64,000 nucleotides of DNA from Candidatus Poribacteria bacterium (GCA_963665845.2 OY762492.1:832001-896000); one strand, 5' to 3'. Shown: positions 8,168 to 19,969, counted from the stretch's first letter. Numbers and translations are program-made. The notes: a model not told the origin generated them from the sequence alone.

Positions 8168-8850
8168 TCATGACGCGTCCGCCGGCGGTTTTTCCTCCGC
8201 GTCCGCTTTCTTCTTTCTATGGTTTCGCCATATCTCTATCGCTGTTGCAAACAGGTTATGGAGAAAATGTGAGACCGCCGTCACCCAAAAGGCGGTCCAA
8301 AAGCTGTCCTGCAGCCAGAAAGCGAATGCGAATCCCCAATACATCCCGCCGTGTATCCCGACGCCAACCCCAGCCTCAATAGAATCTGCAAAATGATCCC
8401 ACGCAAACAGAAACGCAGAGACGGCAACCTGCGTTCCCAAGCCCAGCCCCATCCATTTGAAAGCGCCGATGACCAGCGCTTGAAACAGCAGCGTTTCAAC
8501 GACGGGCGCAAACAGCAAAAGACAAACGCTTCCTCAACCGAGCTCGCACCCTCAAAACGCCCTTTCTTTTTGGGCGCTTTGACCGACTTTCGAATGAGAA
8601 TTCGCGCAAACAAAAGTACAAAATTTACGGCTAGGCATTCTGATGTGATGAGCAGGCAGAACGGCCATGGCGAAAACCGTTCATACCGCCGCAGCCAGCC
8701 GACCGCCCACTCATGCTGATTGGTATGCCGACCCAGCCATGCAATCAACGCTGCCGCGGCAAGCGCCGCGCCGATCAACAGCGCCCGTCGGGGTCCGCTT
8801 TTTCCGCCTTTTTTGTCAACAGACGGTTCCGCGTTCTCATTCTCGCTCAA
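8168..8850 (-). pseudogene. CPBP/Abi (CAAX protease-like) intramembrane protease paralog, frameshifted near 8520
   Basis: Near-copy of 8989..9672 split over two ORFs (8281..8943, 8168..8518). One base is missing in a T-run: gtc tt ttg ctg versus ttt act tta ctg in the intact copy. Could be a sequencing error. Confidence 0.7.
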
Positions 8851-8988
8851 CGGGCGGCTCTTCCTGTTCGTTGTTGCGTTTCTGAAGGAAAGAAGGCGGG
8901 TTCTACTGAACATTACGTTTGCCGAAAACGGCGGCTCTGTCAAGAGAGAACGGCTAAAGCGGCGCAGAAACCGTCCGCTGTCTCCTTT

Positions 8989-9672
8989 TCATGACGCGTC
9001 CGCCGGCGGTTTTTCCTCCGCGTTTGCCTTCTTCTTTCTATGTTTTCGCCAGATAAGTATTGCGACTGGAAACAGGTTGTTGAGAAAATGCGAGACCGCC
9101 GTCACCCAAAAGGCGGTCCAAAAGCTGCCCTGCAGCCAGAAGGCGAATGTGAACCCAAAATACAGCCCGCCCGGGATCCCGGCGGCAACCCCCACTGCAA
9201 TAGACTCCGCAAAATGAATCGAAGCAAACAGAAACGCAGAGGCGGCAACCTGCGTTCCCATGCCCAGCCCCAGCCATTTGAGAGCGCCGATGATCAACGC
9301 CTGGAACAGCAGCGTTTCAACGACGGGCGCAAACAGTAAAGTAAAAAACGCGAGCTCGGCCGAGCTTTTATCCTCAAAGCGCGCCTTCTTTTTGGGCGCC
9401 TTGACCGCCTTTCGAATACGAGTGTGCGCGATTGACAAGGCAACGCTCACGGCTAAACCCTCTAATGTGATGAGCAGGCAGAACGACCATGGCGAAAACC
9501 TTTCATACCGCCGAAGCCAGCCGACCGCCCACTCATGCTGATTGGTATGCCGACCCAGCCATGCAATCAACGCTGCCGCGGTAAGCGCGGCGCCGATCAA
9601 CAGCGCCCGTCGGGGTCCGCTTTTCCCGTCGTTTTCATCAACTGACGGTTCCGCGTTTTCATTCTCGCTCAA
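8989..9672 (-). CDS. CPBP/Abi family intramembrane glutamic protease-like protein
   Basis: Multiple TM segments; APVVET (EE-like), LFASIH (FxxxH) and SHFLNN (HxxxN) motifs. Confidence 0.8.
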   Translation of the reverse strand: MSENENAEPSVDENDGKSGPRRALLIGAALTAAALIAWLGRHTNQHEWAVGWLRRYERFSPWSFCLLITLEGLAVSVALSIAHTRIRKAVKAPKKKARFEDKSSAELAFFTLLFAPVVETLLFQALIIGALKWLGLGMGTQVAASAFLFASIHFAESIAVGVAAGIPGGLYFGFTFAFWLQGSFWTAFWVTAVSHFLNNLFPVAILIWRKHRKKKANAEEKPPADAS

Positions 9673-11125
9673 CGGGCGGTTCCTCTTGTTCGCTTTTGCG
9701 TTTCTGTTCGGTACGCTCTACAAGTTTATATGCGGCGACCAGCGCCGCCCCCGGCAGATTATGCAGCGAATGGGCGACCGCCGTTACCCAAAACGCCGTC
9801 CAAAAAGATTCCCCCATCCAATGCGCAAACGCGAAGCCCAGATAGACGCCGCCCGGCAAACCTGCCGCGATGCCTGAACCTGCAGAATTGGTGAAATGAG
9901 CAAACGCAAACAGAGCCGCCGACGCCGCAGCCTGCGTTCCCAGATCCGCTCCAACAAGCCTCAACAGAAGGACGGGAGCCGCCTGCAGCGCAAACGTCTC
10001 ATAGATGGGCGCCTCCGCCAGCACATATGCAGCCCGCATGTTTTTGATTTCAAGGATCGGATCGATGTTCTCTTTTTTCGGTTGAGGGTCAATGTTCTCT
10101 TTTTTCGGTTGAGGCTCGCGCGTCTCTCCGCTCTCATGTTCTTCGTCGGGTTCAACAGGTTTGGGCGGCTTCATCCGAGCGCGCAGTTCAGACAACCTTT
10201 GCCGTAGGCGCGAGCGGTCCACAAATACCGCAATGGGCATTAGCAGCAGGCTCACAACGAGCGTCTCAAGCGCGAGCCATAAACAAAACGCCCACTGCCC
10301 ATGCTTGCTGTATCGCGCCGTTAGCCATTCAAACGCCCACGCAAACGAACCGCCGCTCAACAGGAACGCCAACAGGAGAACAGCCGCGACCGCCAGCAGC
10401 AGCCGCCAGTGCGGAGCCGCCTGTTTTGCGCCGTTCCGCGCCGCTAGACCGAGCGCTACGTAAAGCGTATTCAGCCCATGCGCCGACGCATGCAGCGCCA
10501 ACGCAAGCGCGAACGCGACCGCCCATGAAACGCCGGCGCCGTAGGCGAACGCGGTTGCCGCATACAGATTCTGCGTACCCCAAAACAGCCATGACCAGCT
10601 CCCGCGGCGGTGAAAAAACAGCGCGGACAGATAAACGGAAACGGCAATCTGTCCCACGGCGCCGATGTCGAAGCGGCTCAATAGAAACATCGGAACGGCT
10701 TGAAGCGCCGCCGCATAAAAAGCGGGCGCGGCGGCGAGGTCGATCAAAACATTTTTGACGGAGCGGCGGTTCGATGCCTGAAACGAGGCTTTTTTGCCAA
10801 GTCCAAAAAGACGCAGGACAGGAATCCAATTGCGCAGATTCGGAAGCGCCGCCTCGCGCCCGAAAAGGCGCAGAAGGGTCAAAAGCGCCGCGCCGACCGC
10901 AAACATCTCCACGGCGGCGCGCCAGCCGAAACCCCATGCGGACAGCTCCGCATATCTGTTCAGCCACACATCCGCCAGCCCGATCTTGTCAACAAACCGA
11001 CTCAACCAGACAAGCAGCCCCAAACCGACCAAGGCGGCTCCGACGCGCAGCAGGCGTTTGATCTTGTCCCTTGGCGGCGCCGCGCCGCCCTTCTCGTTCA
11101 TTTCTTGCCCTTTTCTCCCGCTCAA
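9659..11125 (-). CDS. Membrane protein with two CPBP-like domains, the N-terminal one degenerate
   Basis: C-terminal APIYET / LFAFAH / AHSLHN; N-terminal APAFYA / LFFH / HASAHG; duplicated PQPKKENID linker. Start may be the second Met. Confidence 0.75.
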   Translation of the reverse strand: MSGRKGQEMNEKGGAAPPRDKIKRLLRVGAALVGLGLLVWLSRFVDKIGLADVWLNRYAELSAWGFGWRAAVEMFAVGAALLTLLRLFGREAALPNLRNWIPVLRLFGLGKKASFQASNRRSVKNVLIDLAAAPAFYAAALQAVPMFLLSRFDIGAVGQIAVSVYLSALFFHRRGSWSWLFWGTQNLYAATAFAYGAGVSWAVAFALALALHASAHGLNTLYVALGLAARNGAKQAAPHWRLLLAVAAVLLLAFLLSGGSFAWAFEWLTARYSKHGQWAFCLWLALETLVVSLLLMPIAVFVDRSRLRQRLSELRARMKPPKPVEPDEEHESGETREPQPKKENIDPQPKKENIDPILEIKNMRAAYVLAEAPIYETFALQAAPVLLLRLVGADLGTQAAASAALFAFAHFTNSAGSGIAAGLPGGVYLGFAFAHWMGESFWTAFWVTAVAHSLHNLPGAALVAAYKLVERTEQKRKSEQEEPPVERE

Positions 11126-14527: not shown

Positions 14528-15232
14528 TTAGCTGGTTTCTTTATTCCGTTTCGCTTTCGGGTTCATTTTCGACTGAATCGCCGCGCCGAGAGCATGCAGA
14601 GCCGCTGCCGCGTCGTCGGTCGACCCTGTATGAACGATATTCGTTCCGTTCTCCGTATGCTGAACAGACGTCTCAATGTTTTTCCGCTGCAGATACAGCC
14701 GCGCCGCGGTCGGCGTGAGGCGTCCGCCGCGCGCCGCCAACTTAGCGAGATGCGGTTTGCCCTTGCTCATCTCATGGCGCATTTCGGCATGCGCTTGGAC
14801 GATCGGGACCCGCTCTTCGTTCTCGGTTGCGATGCGGAGCTCAAATCCGTCGTCGGTCAGATGAACGGAGCGCGACACATCTCGCATGCCGCGCCTGCGC
14901 CGTTCATGTCCATGGCGTCCGCGGCGTTCGGGTCGTCCTCGCCGCGCGCCGCTTCTTGAACCTCGGCGCGCATCGCTTCGGCGTTCGGGTCGTCCTCGCC
15001 GCGCGCCGCTTCTTGAACCTCGGCGCGCATCGCTTCGGCGTTCAGGGCGTCCGCGCCTTTCATGTCCTGGTCTTCCGCGCCGTTCATGGCGTTTCGGACC
15101 TCGCCGCGCGCCGCTTCGGCGTTCTGGTCGCCCTCGCCGTTCATGGCGTTTCGGACCTCGCCGGCTGTTTCCTCGTTCTGTTTCTTTTCTCAACATTTCC
15201 TCCGTTGATTTTGCTTCGCCGCCGCTCCGCAT
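14528..15232 (-). CDS. Hypothetical protein with Arg/Gly-rich tandem repeats and a globular C-terminal domain
   Basis: RRGRPERRSDARRGSRSGA repeats (57-bp DNA unit at 14922, 14979, 15036); ordinary-composition C-terminus; real start probably MLRK near 15196 (GGAGG upstream). Confidence 0.7.
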   Translation of the reverse strand: MRSGGEAKSTEEMLRKETERGNSRRGPKRHERRGRPERRSGARRGPKRHERRGRPGHERRGRPERRSDARRGSRSGARRGRPERRSDARRGSRSGARRGRPERRGRHGHERRRRGMRDVSRSVHLTDDGFELRIATENEERVPIVQAHAEMRHEMSKGKPHLAKLAARGGRLTPTAARLYLQRKNIETSVQHTENGTNIVHTGSTDDAAAALHALGAAIQSKMNPKAKRNKETS

Positions 15233-15303: not shown

Positions 15304-15463
15304 GCGCATCTGGACGGCGCCTGCGGCGCCTAAGATTCCCGCTTACGCGGGAATGACAACATGGGGGCGCGGGAATGATGAGTTGGGGCGCGGCGCCGTT
15401 CCCTCTTGGGCGCGGTCTATGTTACACTGGATATATCACATAAAAAACGCGAAGGGCGCGAAA

Positions 15464-16219
15464 ATGCGTTTGAAAGGCAAAAGAGCCTTCATCACAGGAG
15501 CGGGAAGCGGCATCGGATGGGAGACGGCGCGGCGGATGGTCTCGGAAGGGGCGCAAGCCGCTCTCGTCAGCCTCCCGTCAGACGAAGTGGAACGCAAAGC
15601 GAAGCGGCTGCGCCCCTCCGCCGTAGGTCTCTCCGCGGATGTCTCGGACGAAGCGCAGGTGAAACATGCGGTCGAAGCGGCTGTCAAAGCGTTCGGCGGC
15701 ATCGATATACTGGCCGCCTGCGCCGGCATTCAGCTCCATGTTGAAGACCGCGATCTCCATACGCTCCAATCGGAAACGTGGGACAGAACGCACAATGTGA
15801 ATTACCGCGGCGTCTTTTTGACGGTCAAGCATGTCTTAAATGAGATGGTTAAATCGGGGGGCGGAGGCTCCATTGCGATCGTCTCCTCCGTCACAGGTTT
15901 GAGCGGTTTTTCAGCAAACCCCGCCTATTTGAGCGGCAAGCATGGCTTGATCGGTTTGAGTCGGTATACCGCCGTCCATTACGGCAAATACGGGATTCGC
16001 TGCAACGCGGTCTGCCCAGGCGCGCTGGAACGGACGCCGAACCATGAGAAGCATCCCAACCCGAAGGGGCGCGCCGAGCGTTTTGAGGCGCGCGTTCCCC
16101 TTGGACGCCTCGGCGCGCCGGCGGAGATTGCCAACGCGCTTGTTTTTCTGTCCAGCGACGAAGCCTCCTACATCAGCGGCGCCTGCTTAACGATAGACGG
16201 CGGACTCTCCGCCGCGTAA
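15464..16219 (+). CDS. SDR family oxidoreductase
   Basis: TGAGSGIG, YLSGK (YxxxK), IRCNAVCPG, IDGG. Confidence 0.95.
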   Translation: MRLKGKRAFITGAGSGIGWETARRMVSEGAQAALVSLPSDEVERKAKRLRPSAVGLSADVSDEAQVKHAVEAAVKAFGGIDILAACAGIQLHVEDRDLHTLQSETWDRTHNVNYRGVFLTVKHVLNEMVKSGGGGSIAIVSSVTGLSGFSANPAYLSGKHGLIGLSRYTAVHYGKYGIRCNAVCPGALERTPNHEKHPNPKGRAERFEARVPLGRLGAPAEIANALVFLSSDEASYISGACLTIDGGLSAA

Positions 16220-16248
16220 AGGAGACCTCCCCGCCCAGGCTTCTGAAC

Positions 16249-17139
16249 TCAAAGATATTGGCGCAGCCGCGACGCATGCGGGCGCTGGCGGATGCTGTTG
16301 AAGGCGGCAACTTCCAGCTGGCGCACCCGTTCGCGCGACAGCCCCACCTCTTGCCCGACTTCGCGCAGGCTGCGCGCCCCGCCGTCGTCCAGCCCGTAGC
16401 GAAGACGGACGACGCGCGCCGTTCGCGGGTCCAACTCGGACAGCACCGATTCAAGCTCCTCCCGTTTCATCTTCTCCTCGGCGATGGCGTCGGGGCGGCG
16501 CCGGCTCTCGTCCTCAATCGTTTCATACAGCGGCCGCCCGCAGTCGCCCGCTTTGGCGTCCAGCGACACGGTCTCGCTTTCGGCGCCCAACGCCCGCTTC
16601 ACCTGATCATGCGTCAATCCGCTCGCGGACGACAGCGCCTCTATCGATTCCTCTCCGCTGTTTTGATGCCGGCGAATCTGGCGCCGCCACTCCTGCAGGT
16701 AGGTCGGCACGCGCACCGCGCGCGCCTGATTTGCGACCGCGAGACCCATCCGCTGCCGTATCCACATGGCGGCGTAGGAGCTGAACGGAACGCCGCGCCG
16801 CCAGTCGAACGTTTCGATGGCGCGAAGGATGCCCATGGAACCTTCCTGTATCAGATCCAGCGTATCGACGCCTCGGTTGCGGTACTTTTTTGAAATGGAG
16901 GCGGCAAGACGCAGGTTTCGCCGCGCGATTTCGTCGCGCGCGCGTTTCTCTTCAGCCTCAATCCGTTGAACGACCGCGCGGGGGCGTCCCTGTTTCTCCG
17001 CCTGCCGGCGCGCTTTCCGAAGCATGTCAAGCCGACGGAAAAGGGCGGTCTCCTGCTCCCTTGTCAACAAAGGCGTTTTGCCAATCTCTTTCAGGTATGC
17101 TTCCAGAGCCGTTCCGCTGGGTCGTTTCAAATTGGACAT
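16249..17139 (-). CDS. Alternative sigma70-family factor (RpoD/RpoS-like, no region 1.1)
   Basis: YLKEIGKTPLLT (region 1.2), DLIQEG..FSSYAAMWIRQ (region 2), SLREVG..SRERVRQLE (region 4). Confidence 0.93.
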   Translation of the reverse strand: MSNLKRPSGTALEAYLKEIGKTPLLTREQETALFRRLDMLRKARRQAEKQGRPRAVVQRIEAEEKRARDEIARRNLRLAASISKKYRNRGVDTLDLIQEGSMGILRAIETFDWRRGVPFSSYAAMWIRQRMGLAVANQARAVRVPTYLQEWRRQIRRHQNSGEESIEALSSASGLTHDQVKRALGAESETVSLDAKAGDCGRPLYETIEDESRRRPDAIAEEKMKREELESVLSELDPRTARVVRLRYGLDDGGARSLREVGQEVGLSRERVRQLEVAAFNSIRQRPHASRLRQYL

Positions 17140-17181
17140 CTCTTTTTCTCCACGCTTTTTACGCCGCTTCCCCCTCCTTTA

Positions 17182-17198
17182 AGCAAAAAGCGTGCCAA
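17182..17198 (-). promoter_or_regulatory. sigma54 (-24/-12) promoter of the sigma70 gene
   Basis: TTGGCACGCTTTTTGCT matches the TGGCACG-N4-TTGCW consensus, about 40 bp upstream of the start. Confidence 0.88.
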
Positions 17199-17268
17199 CT
17201 TAGGCGGCGGGGCGGCTCGCGCCGTATGCGGCTTTGCGCCCTTATCGGCGGACAGGCAGACGAAAAAG

Positions 17269-17306
17269 TGTCGCGTTTTTGATACAGGTGTATCGTTTAT
17301 GGACGA
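17269..17306. promoter_or_regulatory. Candidate tandem upstream activator sites
   Basis: TGTCGCGTTTTTGATACA and TGTATCGTTTATGGACGA, 20 bp apart, 70-110 bp upstream of the -24 box. Confidence 0.5.
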
Positions 17307-17320
17307 AAGGCGCCGCGCGC

Positions 17321-18751
17321 TTACGATTCTCTTTTGAGCTGATGCGCCTTGATCTTGCGGTGAAGAACGGAGCGGCTGATCTGCAGTCTCTCTGCCGCTT
17401 GAGTCACGTTGCCGTTGGCGCGTTCCATCGCGCATCGGATCATATACTTTTCAAATTCAGCCGACGCTTCCGAGAGCGGCATCTGCGCCAGCATCCGCAG
17501 ATAGCTGTTCGTTTCCCTGTCCGCCCTCTCCTCCAGCGCTTCCTCCTGATCCCAAAAATCGGGCGGGAAGTCGTCGCACCGTATCAGCACCCCGCCGCAC
17601 TGCAGCGCCGCCGCTTCAACAGCGTTGCGCAGCTCGCGGATATTGCCGCCCCATACGCGCGTCATCAGCCGCGGCAGCACATCCTTGTCAAAACCGAACA
17701 CATGCTTTTTCAGCTTCTGGCAATGCCGCATCAAAAAGAACTCGGCGAGCATCGGTATGTCGTCGCGCCGTTCGCGCAGGGGCGGAACCCGTATCGTGAC
17801 GGCGCGTATGCGGTAGTACAGGTCGCGGCGCAGCTTGCCGCTTCGCGCCGACTCCTCCAGCGGTTGATTCGTCGCCGCCACAATTCGAACGTCGCAGCGG
17901 GTCAGCCGCCCTCCGACGCGCTGTATCTCGCCTTTTTCTAAGGCGCGCAGCAGTTTCGGCTGCGCCTCCAGCGACATATCCCCGATCTCATCCAGAAAAA
18001 GCGTCCCGCCCTCCGCCTCCATGAATTTTCCCTCGCGCGCGTCCACATCGGTCGCGACGCGCCGGTCAATGCCGAACAGCTCCGCCTCCACCAGCTCATC
18101 CGGTATGGCGCTGCAGTTGATCGCAATGAACGGCTTGTCGGCGCGGGGGCTGCACTTGTGAATCGCCTCGGCGACCAGCTCCTTTCCGGAGCCGCTTTCG
18201 CCCACAATCAGAACGGTGGAATCGGTCGGGGCGACCCGTCCGACCGTGGTCGTCAATTCAATCATAGCGGCGCTGGATCCGACCATGGTCGTCAATTCGG
18301 AGGAGTGGTCGCGCATCGGCGCTTCATCGGCGTCCAATCGGCGCTCGGCGGAAATGGCGCGCACAACCCGCACCAGCCGCTCGTAATCGATCGGCTTGAT
18401 GATATAGTCGCGCGCTCCCGTGAGGCTGGCGCGCAGCGACGTGTCCGCCGAACTATGCCCCGTGATAATGATCACATCGGCGGGCTTAGCGCCCTTCTTC
18501 GCCTCCTGCAGCGCCTTCAACCCGCCCAGCTTGTCGCGCGCGCCGTCCCGGTCGGGCATCCACAGGTCCGCGATGACAATGTCGTACGGCTCCTCGGCAT
18601 ACCTGATTTTATCCAGCGTCTCATCCCTGTCGTATGCCGCGTCCACCTTGACCGACAGGTCCGACTCCATGAGCAGCTGCTGCGCGATGTAGCGGCAGGT
18701 GTCTCGGTTGTCGTCCGAGACGAGTATGCGGATCGGCTGATCGCTTGACAT
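17321..18751 (-). CDS. NtrC-family sigma54 enhancer-binding response regulator (REC-AAA+-HTH)
   Basis: REC domain (DD, DLWMP, KP), GESGSGKE, GTLFLDEIG, WGGNIREL, Fis-type HTH. Confidence 0.95.
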   Translation of the reverse strand: MSSDQPIRILVSDDNRDTCRYIAQQLLMESDLSVKVDAAYDRDETLDKIRYAEEPYDIVIADLWMPDRDGARDKLGGLKALQEAKKGAKPADVIIITGHSSADTSLRASLTGARDYIIKPIDYERLVRVVRAISAERRLDADEAPMRDHSSELTTMVGSSAAMIELTTTVGRVAPTDSTVLIVGESGSGKELVAEAIHKCSPRADKPFIAINCSAIPDELVEAELFGIDRRVATDVDAREGKFMEAEGGTLFLDEIGDMSLEAQPKLLRALEKGEIQRVGGRLTRCDVRIVAATNQPLEESARSGKLRRDLYYRIRAVTIRVPPLRERRDDIPMLAEFFLMRHCQKLKKHVFGFDKDVLPRLMTRVWGGNIRELRNAVEAAALQCGGVLIRCDDFPPDFWDQEEALEERADRETNSYLRMLAQMPLSEASAEFEKYMIRCAMERANGNVTQAAERLQISRSVLHRKIKAHQLKRES

Positions 18752-18871
18752 ACGCTTCCCCTCAACTGCCCCCTATCTTAAACCATTCGGAGGATGGGGG
18801 CAAGTATGAAAAACAGGCGCGATTCGGTATCATGCAGGCGTTTCAACTCCTTCGGCAAGGTTCACCGCTCC

Positions 18872-19969
18872 ATGCGACTCAAAACGGTATGCATTTTATT
18901 CGCGGCGGCGCTCGGTTTCTCCCTCGGCGCCGAGGCGCAAACGTACACGATTCAGCCCGGCGACAGCCTGCGCATCCTGATCTTGAACAGACCCGAATAC
19001 ACACAGGAGGTGACCGTCGGGCCGGACGGAATGCTGCCGTATTTTTTAGTCGGCTCCATCGACACAAAAGGAATGACGCTTGAGGCGCTTCAAGAGCGAA
19101 TCGCGGAGGGGTTGTCGAAACATTTCAGCGATCCGCAGGCGATTGTGGTTCCGACGCCGCGCAGTTACGGGGTTTATGTCGGAGGGCAGGTTGCGAACCC
19201 CGGTTTTCATACGGCGCCGGAGCCTGAAATCGATCTTCGGCGGGCGGTCATCTTGGCGGGCGGACCGTTGCCGGACAGCGCCAATCTCAAAAACGCGCTG
19301 CTGTACCGCGCGGACGGCGAGACGGCCGCATACGACCTGACACGGTACGCGCAGCCCCCGCCGACGGTGAAAAACGGCGACGCCGTCTATATTCCGCCTA
19401 AAACGCGCATATTGGTGTCGGGCAATGTTCAAAAACCGGACGTCTATTATGTGGACGCGCCGCCGACCGCCGCGTTTGCGCTGGCGCTGGCGGGCGGACC
19501 GATGGAAGACCGCGCCGCCCTGGACCGACTCGTCATCCTGCGTTCAGACGGCGTCAGCGAAACGATCAGCCTGTCGGAGCATTTTTGGAACGACGACCCA
19601 GAAACGCTGCCGCGCCTGCAGTCCGGCGACGCGCTGTTTGTGCCGTACGCTTACGCGGCGGAGGAGATCAGCGTCATTGGATATGTCCGCGCGCCTGGCT
19701 TATATAAGGTGCGCGGACCGATACCGGTCGGACGCGCGCTGGCGCTCTCCGGCGGGGCGGATGTCGCCAAAGCGGATATGAACTCCGCTGAAATACAACG
19801 GCTGGACGGCTCCTGGGAGAAGGTGGACCTGCGGACCGAGGCGACCAGCGTTTTAGTCCATCCCGGCGAAACGGTGCGCGTCCGCAAGCGGTTTCAAGTG
19901 AACTGGTCATTCGTTCTCAGCGCCGTCACAACAGGGGTACTTCTCGCGCGCTTTATTCAAAACAACTAA
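18872..19969 (+). CDS. Polysaccharide export (Wza-like) protein with SLBB repeats
   Basis: Signal peptide, YTIQPGD, VGPDG, three V.G.V..PG..LAGG SLBB units. Confidence 0.85.
   Translation: MRLKTVCILFAAALGFSLGAEAQTYTIQPGDSLRILILNRPEYTQEVTVGPDGMLPYFLVGSIDTKGMTLEALQERIAEGLSKHFSDPQAIVVPTPRSYGVYVGGQVANPGFHTAPEPEIDLRRAVILAGGPLPDSANLKNALLYRADGETAAYDLTRYAQPPPTVKNGDAVYIPPKTRILVSGNVQKPDVYYVDAPPTAAFALALAGGPMEDRAALDRLVILRSDGVSETISLSEHFWNDDPETLPRLQSGDALFVPYAYAAEEISVIGYVRAPGLYKVRGPIPVGRALALSGGADVAKADMNSAEIQRLDGSWEKVDLRTEATSVLVHPGETVRVRKRFQVNWSFVLSAVTTGVLLARFIQNN

Follow-up and report, generated by a model that had tools for sequence, protein, structure and literature searches.

The adjacent genes for an NtrC-family bacterial enhancer-binding protein (bEBP) and an alternative sigma70 factor, located on the minus strand of a 64,000-nucleotide stretch of a marine Candidatus Poribacteria genome (GCA_963665845.2, OY762492.1:832001-896000; the whole stretch is called the window below), probably form the output half of a Poribacteria-wide cascade that leads from a histidine kinase through the bEBP and sigma54 to sigma70. 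Positions without a contig name are counted from the first letter of the window. This genome is designated G000 and its contig C1 (the window being C1:832001-896000), the second genome of the same genus is G001, f1 to f11 are family-level groups, and L-numbers are loci. The promoter, the enhancer, the gene order, rpoN, the intact catalytic motifs, a kinase ortholog and the co-occurrence of the parts across genomes are all observed. In the cascade as proposed, a CHASE2 membrane kinase would phosphorylate the NtrC-type activator, which would bind the tandem enhancer that follows its own gene and, by means of a non-GAFTGA loop, activate sigma54 RNA polymerase at a -24/-12 promoter; the resulting alternative sigma70 would then switch on its own gene set with a changed -10 specificity. 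An original prediction, made from the sequence of this stretch alone, had suggested a Borrelia-like wiring (bEBP, enhancer, sigma54 promoter, alternative sigma70), which is supported by the presence of rpoN and by the conservation of synteny and promoter.

The bEBP and sigma70 genes are separated by 181 nt (Table 1) and flanked by genes of a short-chain dehydrogenase/reductase (SDR) oxidoreductase and a polysaccharide export protein. A 7.5-kb contig of run X2, possibly the source sample, covers positions 15329-19900 with zero differences, and in G001 the spacing is identical and the upstream gene is similar in size and orientation; an assembly error is therefore an unlikely cause of the arrangement. 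The closest named relative of the activator, also from Candidatus Poribacteria, has 95% identity (L039). No intrinsic terminator was found between the two genes by a simple scan, and transcription may read through from the bEBP gene into the sigma gene. The sole RNA run consists of assembled contigs of a related strain. A good deal of the bEBP gene and portions of the sigma and kinase genes are covered by them, but the promoter is not; as they reveal neither a transcript start nor its strand or level, they were left out of the evidence. The rpoN gene itself is intact at C1:483096-484697 (PF04552, 195 bits) and was found in 39 of the 41 genomes checked. G019, G020, G023, G026, G028, G040 and G010 each have an additional rpoN-like gene that is divergent (E about 1e-14 to 1e-25); G000 has a single rpoN.

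Table 1. Features of the bEBP-sigma70 unit (window positions)
Feature	Position	Strand	Basis
NtrC-family bEBP gene, REC-AAA+-HTH_8, 476 aa	17321..18751	minus	Pfam
Codons of loop L1, ELFG-IDR-RVATDV	18044..18082	minus	sequence
Recognition helix of the Fis-type helix-turn-helix (HTH), ISRSVLHRK, predicted enhancer binder	17354..17380	minus	Pfam, sequence
Distal degenerate enhancer site, CGT-N11-ACA	17305-17289	minus	sequence, conservation
Promoter-proximal enhancer site, TGTATC-N6-GCGACA (perfect TGT-N12-ACA)	17286-17269	minus	sequence, tandem kept in relatives
Sigma54 -24/-12 element, TTGGCACG-CTTT-TTGCT	17198-17182	minus	sequence, conservation
Group-2-like sigma70 gene, 296 aa	16249..17139	minus	Pfam r1.2 (residues 12-33), r2, weak r3, r4

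The TGGCACG-N4-TTGCT element originally predicted ahead of the sigma70 gene can be read directly in the sequence. It is intergenic and correctly oriented, with a predicted +1 near 17171, about 32 nt 5' of the sigma ATG. Perfect TGGCACG-N4-TTGC[AT] strings occur 9 times in the genome compared with 0.04-0.10 expected (contig C1, order-3/4 Markov models). Genes for glnA and ammonium transporters are classic sigma54 targets, and in G000 sites of the -24/-12 type, one of them with a mismatch, stand before glnA and an ammonium transporter gene. The site is kept in 22 of 23 orthologous module loci; this count includes the frameshifted locus of G002 and excludes G013, where the locus is split across two contig ends, and the bEBP locus of G003. 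Counted by sigma gene, a -24/-12 site precedes 22 of the 25 module sigmas, 7 of 43 other group 1/2 sigmas and none of 13 RpoD-clade rows. The three module sigmas without a call belong to G013 (contig edge), G002 (frameshifted, with a GGGCAC-N5-GTGC variant) and G003. In the G002 locus (L035) both the bEBP and the sigma gene are frameshifted, possibly through assembly errors.

For comparison, generic bEBP loci were collected from genome-contig and metagenome-contig scans; 158 of the 160 served as controls, the other two being orthologs of the module. The control patterns for promoter and tandem sites were slightly stricter and the span searched was 450 nt, as against 700 nt for the module loci. 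On control terms, promoters are present at 20/23 module and 11/139 control loci, and tandem sites at 15/23 and 1/139, respectively. A sigma70 match was found at none of the 158 control loci. That two unrelated neighbouring genes merely carry chance matches to these motifs is a practically negligible explanation and is already largely refuted: -24/-12-like strings do arise in coding sequence from codon use, and a single TGT-N12-ACA has chance frequency (409 observed against 408 expected) and is uninformative alone, but gene order, promoter and enhancer are conserved together across seven family-level groups, and the controls differ.

Upstream of the promoter, two TGT-N12-ACA-like sites had been noted. 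The proximal one is perfect, whereas the distal one merely resembles the pattern. The NtrC-family gene ends just past them, as had been stated, its stop codon lying 15 nt before the first site. Together the sites form an inner inverted repeat GATACA-CC-TGTATC, and G001 is identical at 35 of the 37 bases of the tandem. The putative enhancer is backed by conservation, not by rarity. Relatives have the element as an evident tandem, YGT-N12-ACA-G-TGT-N12-ACA, which repeats every 19 bp and is centred 90-350 bp upstream of the -24 element. A tandem score of at least 18 is reached at 18 of 23 module loci and at none of 139 control bEBP loci, in a comparison that is partly circular as the consensus was taken from the module loci. 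In G003, where the sigma gene lies apart from the bEBP gene, the tandem and a TGGTAC-N5-GTGC site precede the sigma gene and nothing comparable follows the bEBP gene. Since the tandem stays with the relocated sigma gene, it is to be read as part of the sigma promoter.

The inner half-sites agree within genomes at 32 of 42 positions, compared with 21 after shuffling (kin not being independent). Two genomes with a QQLHKK recognition helix have TGTAAA half-sites, and this genus has TGTATC. This half-site and helix pattern fits binding of the enhancer by the adjacent HTH, and TGT-N9/11/12-ACA is given as a known type of bEBP site (PMC4641369). A second convincing enhancer, which would mark further targets of the bEBP, was not found in G000. 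Five complete or near-complete relatives all have the module site, with 1-3 extra one-mismatch matches each against 0-3 for a reversed control.

The activator has an intact phospho-acceptor (D62), Walker A and B motifs, sensors I and II, arginine fingers and a Fis-type HTH, and it is under purifying selection (dN/dS 0.12 between G000 and G001). A profile search returned 15 bEBP clusters at 637 bits or more, followed by a drop to 447; the only taxon-named top member is from Poribacteria. The module bEBPs form one clade (SH-aLRT 98) beside two GVATGV/RVATGV proteins (moderate support, 84-89), in a tree that left out four proteins without a Walker A pattern match.

Several facts weigh against the activator acting on sigma54 in the usual way. 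Loop L1 lacks GAFTGA and has RVATDV in its place, with the Thr retained and Ala instead of the Phe; it counts 16 residues compared with 17 in 103 of 105 generic bEBPs. The protein thus has neither GAFTGA nor a tolerated variant and is not classed as a canonical sigma54 activator. In the PspF-sigma54 structure, the loop Phe contacts sigma54 region I, where it tracks the leucines, and activators with a substitution at this residue are defective (PMC9770992); a survey ranks Phe changes other than to Tyr as inactive (PMC3162934). Seven other bEBPs in G000 have GAFTGA, GAFTDA or GSFTGA loops. The nearest precedent, D. vulgaris DVUA0100 with its GVATGV loop, is a prediction: this protein is predicted, not shown, to activate sigma54 promoters in the account of PMC4641369. 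In G000 alone, moreover, the pair of enhancer sites is not statistically unusual: it scores 16/24 on the class consensus, and about 920 places per strand attain that score. Because the loop is RVATDV and one residue short, the function of the protein as a sigma54 activator is suggested by its context.

It could also be that the promoter is sigma54-dependent while the RVATDV protein is a repressor or scaffold, a partner of a GAFTGA bEBP in a mixed ring, or a regulator acting with sigma70 like VpsR, HupR and TyrR. The loop would leave the protein unable to remodel sigma54 alone, and the seven canonical bEBPs would be on hand for a mixed ring. Nevertheless, this explanation is unlikely. VATxV is invariant in 16 of 16 orthologs (41-95% identity), the ATPase motifs are intact, and the -24/-12 site is kept beside the RVATDV bEBP across the class; moreover, no second bEBP is linked to the locus, and the DNA between the two genes shows no sigma70-type promoter in a simple scan.

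The sigma70 gene had been described as lacking region 1.1, and the Pfam matches agree. It scores under the NCBIfam cut-offs for RpoD and for RpoS (TIGR02394, 180.8 vs 378.7 bits; NF004207, 177.7 vs 394 bits), and G000 has a separate RpoD-clade gene at C1:3837963 (562-aa frame). With regions 1.2, 2, 3 and 4, no region 1.1 and this separate RpoD, the protein has the features of a group 2 sigma70. Together with 24 orthologs it forms one clade among 68 group 1/2 sigma sequences from 30 genomes, with a support of 99/97 in a careful tree of 35 of the 68 rows, and it is under purifying selection (dN/dS 0.23 vs G001). Region 4.2 retains RERxRQ of -35 recognition. In region 2.4, Gly occupies the position equivalent to T440 (E. 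coli numbering) in 19 of 21 parsed module sigmas; at the next position, R441, all 42 other sigmas have Arg, whereas the four commonest residues of the module are Leu, Cys, Tyr and Gln. These changes make an altered -10 specificity and a separate regulon likely. The genes downstream of the sigma gene are not conserved among relatives.

A second region-1.1-less sigma70 of 289 aa is encoded in G000 at C1:3140003-3140957 (L266) behind a near-perfect -24/-12 site, TTGGCACAATTCTTGCT, with no adjacent bEBP; its ortholog in G005 (L123) likewise has a -24/-12 site. A common origin of the two sigmas was rejected, as they belong to different clades (approximately unbiased test, p=0.008). Since the L266 sigma stands in another clade and without a neighbouring bEBP, this genome likely has two separate sigma54-to-sigma70 cascades. 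Further group 1/2 sigmas with -24/-12 sites occur in other lineages, at L128 (G009), L155 (G011) and L150 (G003), the last adjoining a GAFTGA bEBP. About a dozen weak Sigma70_r2 matches lie in long frames of 390-670 aa, partly in tandem (C1:1716069-1725755, C1:2454271-2455927 and others in G000), and are probably fusions of extracytoplasmic function (ECF) sigmas.

The original prediction had noted no adjacent histidine kinase. This is correct for the window, the nearest one being 158 kb away, but it is a peculiarity of this genus: a CHASE2 histidine kinase gene lies directly upstream of the bEBP gene in all 13 of the relatives' loci that a Pfam scan covered. The implied kinase-free design does not stand, because the likely cognate kinase is present in G000 but displaced. 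Its ortholog is found at C1:2458858-2460687, 1.6 Mb from the bEBP gene (profile E 4e-151, next best 2e-52), and encodes a single-copy, full-length protein of 610 aa with CHASE2, four hydrophobic segments, H-box and ATPase, under purifying selection (dN/dS 0.21). No receiver gene was found within 4 kb of it, 12 receiver-domain genes having been found in G000, and two of the long-frame Sigma70_r2 matches adjoin it. The kinase and the bEBP share an identical profile over the same 35 of 121 genomes. With CHASE2, transmembrane helices, H-box, HATPase and this co-inheritance, the pair has the features of a CHASE2 two-component system, in which phosphotransfer is predicted.

Among family-level groups, the kinase-bEBP pair is present in 3/3 genomes of f1, 9/9 of f2, 1/1 of f3, 19/19 of f6 and 2/3 of f9, in addition to G000, and in 0/2 of f10 and 0/1 of f11. 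In f8, the largest family, it was not found in any of the 82 genomes, and a profile search of five f8 genomes returned generic scores only. A search for sigma orthologs with a strict threshold gave 31 of 121 genomes, none in f8 and none in f1, the members of which are too diverged for the cut-off. The lack of sigma matches in f8 suggests that this sigma is dispensable there.

In most of the relatives, the kinase gene is preceded by a full cluster of surface-protein genes. The first encode a WD40 protein and a Reg_prop/Ig protein, both with a C-terminal FlgD_ig/type IX secretion system (T9SS) sorting domain. They are followed by a gene for a protein of about 700 aa with a PorV/FadL-type barrel (NF033709, under cut-off) and a GDCDD-containing tail, which we take to be transglutaminase-like; the barrel model (predicted local distance difference test score, pLDDT, 80.7) matches FadL and chain F of the T9SS translocon 6h3i. 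The next gene encodes a secreted protein of about 300 aa with a FecR-like start and a Cys-less copy of the barrel tail (hhalign 92.9%). The name FecR should be taken as no more than a lead (Atlas score 0.82; 12-29% of members bear it), and a fold search with this protein returned nothing at E<=0.001. Of the 35 module genomes, 33 have the barrel and FecR-like genes; neither gene was found in G000 or in G001, although G000 has 12 other PorV-family and 57 FlgD_ig matches.

As a side observation, five genomes including f8 contain 11-16 PorV-family and 34-114 FlgD_ig matches each, and Poribacteria appear to have a T9SS-like export system. The WD40 gene at the cluster head is preceded by a TTGGCA(T/C)-N5-(A/G)TGC site, with no clear enhancer upstream, in 10 of the 14 f2/f6 loci that hold it (L161, L162, L166, L169, L256, L257, L258, L260, L262 and L264); the input genes of the cluster may themselves be under sigma54 control. 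In G000, three tandem beta-propeller proteins of about 750 aa (C1:950079-957054, L265) each stand behind a TTGGCAT-N4-TTGC site, and the first has a T9SS-like C-terminal match.

As the relatives' kinase gene follows genes for T9SS-type, barrel and FecR-like proteins, its signal would most likely come from the cell surface or envelope; by analogy with NsrA-CHASE2 signalling in S. meliloti (PMC13001267), the output can best be guessed to be a response of the envelope or to surface contact. In this genus the kinase input is likely simplified or rewired, because searches did not find the barrel and FecR-like genes and the kinase gene has moved. The same two facts could instead indicate that the module is partly decoupled here and that the activator receives its phosphoryl group from a different kinase or from acetyl phosphate. 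G000 does encode one more orphan kinase (C1:3515547) and one more orphan REC-type bEBP (C1:2964103). Decoupling is very unlikely, however, as the CHASE2 kinase is conserved at full length and in single copy, evolves under constraint and is retained in both genomes of the genus.

The kinase-to-sigma cascade could be extended, tentatively, to a phylum-specific relay from surface to sigma. It would comprise T9SS-type surface proteins and a PorV-like barrel with a periplasmic cysteine enzyme, a catalytically dead copy of this enzyme, the CHASE2 kinase, Phe-less sigma54 activation and a sigma70 with new -10 specificity, and this genus would be a natural deletion that keeps the kinase-to-sigma core and has shed the surface input. 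This wider picture is possible, though doubtful. If it is true, the natural deletion would make non-GAFTGA activation and the direct ligand of the kinase testable.

The kind of cascade is already known. In the Hk2-Rrp2-RpoN-RpoS system of Borrelia burgdorferi, a REC-type bEBP and sigma54 likewise bring about transcription of a region-1.1-less alternative sigma70 gene at a -24/-12 promoter; this promoter is reported to suffice in minimal form, and Rrp2 is described as the sole bEBP (PMC11109971, PMC4014564). G000 differs in the conserved tandem enhancer, the bEBP gene abutting the sigma gene, the eight bEBPs, the RVATDV loop and the CHASE2-type kinase, and its sigma lies below the RpoS cut-off as given above. 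The comparison with Borrelia holds for the logic only. HrpL of Pseudomonas syringae is an ECF sigma, and HrpR and HrpS have no receiver domain. The HrpR/HrpS-RpoN-HrpL system of this species is similar in the bEBP-dependent sigma54 transcription of a downstream sigma factor (PMC3105312), and HrpRS are classed as lacking a signal domain in PMC3162934; the counterparts in G000 are a single REC-type bEBP and a group-2-like sigma.

The full cluster of relatives is paralleled by the NsrA-CyaD1/CyaD2/CyaK-Clr system of Sinorhizobium meliloti, which as described links an outer-membrane beta-barrel to inner-membrane CHASE2 sensors, the cyclases, with cAMP and Clr as output (PMC13001267). In Poribacteria the output would run through a histidine kinase, bEBP, sigma54 and sigma70. 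Unlike NsrA, the poribacterial barrel is PorV/FadL-like with the presumably transglutaminase-like tail, and it was not found in G000. The GVATGV-loop bEBPs typified by DVUA0100 of D. vulgaris likewise have the Phe replaced and the Thr kept and are tied to predicted sigma54 promoters (PMC4641369); the poribacterial bEBP, unlike them, is a response regulator, and its first loop position is usually Arg.

On function, the cascade might be a master switch of host adaptation or development as in Borrelia, with the same wiring, and the original prediction had suggested such a lifestyle or developmental switch. The logic is that of Rrp2-RpoN-RpoS (PMC11109971, PMC4014564), and the phylum includes sponge-associated and free-living members (PMC8546597). 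Furthermore, the tandem site occurs once on contig C1, by a pattern built after seeing it, which suggests a dedicated activator. This role is nevertheless unlikely and the suggestion finds no support: the module is missing from the searches of all 82 f8 genomes, although rpoN is present in 16 of the 17 f8 genomes tested; it occurs both with and without flagellin; the gene content downstream of the sigma varies among relatives; and no target gene has been identified. Among five genomes checked for flagellin, the module is accompanied by it in G005 and G074 and stands without it in G000 and G017, and a flagellar cascade was rejected on this ground. G005 and G074 have 14 flagellin-N matches each, an unusually high number, and G000, G017 and G027 have none.

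What would be new in the cascade from CHASE2 kinase to sigma70 is the combination of a non-GAFTGA activator and CHASE2 input, in a split and reduced form. No published description of this module was found in a literature search, which did not cover most subscription journals. Sigma54-to-sigma70 cascades are known from few systems, mostly in pathogens; here one would extend through much of an uncultured phylum that comprises marine bacteria and sponge symbionts, and the regulation of poribacterial genes would gain a defined set of promoter, enhancer, activator and kinase. The rule that remodelling of sigma54 requires the GAFTGA Phe is put to a natural test by this activator. Proteins without GAFTGA are discarded by at least one genome survey (PMC12316311), which would thus miss activators of the RVATDV type. 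The split in this genus, in turn, shows which parts form the indispensable core.

Two further groups of frames were observed elsewhere in the window, on the minus strand. A 234-aa open reading frame (ORF) at 14528-15232 consists of repeated Arg/Gly-rich units and has no Pfam match. At 8281-11125, three tandem related ORFs encode membrane proteins that share an 'ETLLFQA...H' motif and resemble CPBP/Abi intramembrane proteases.

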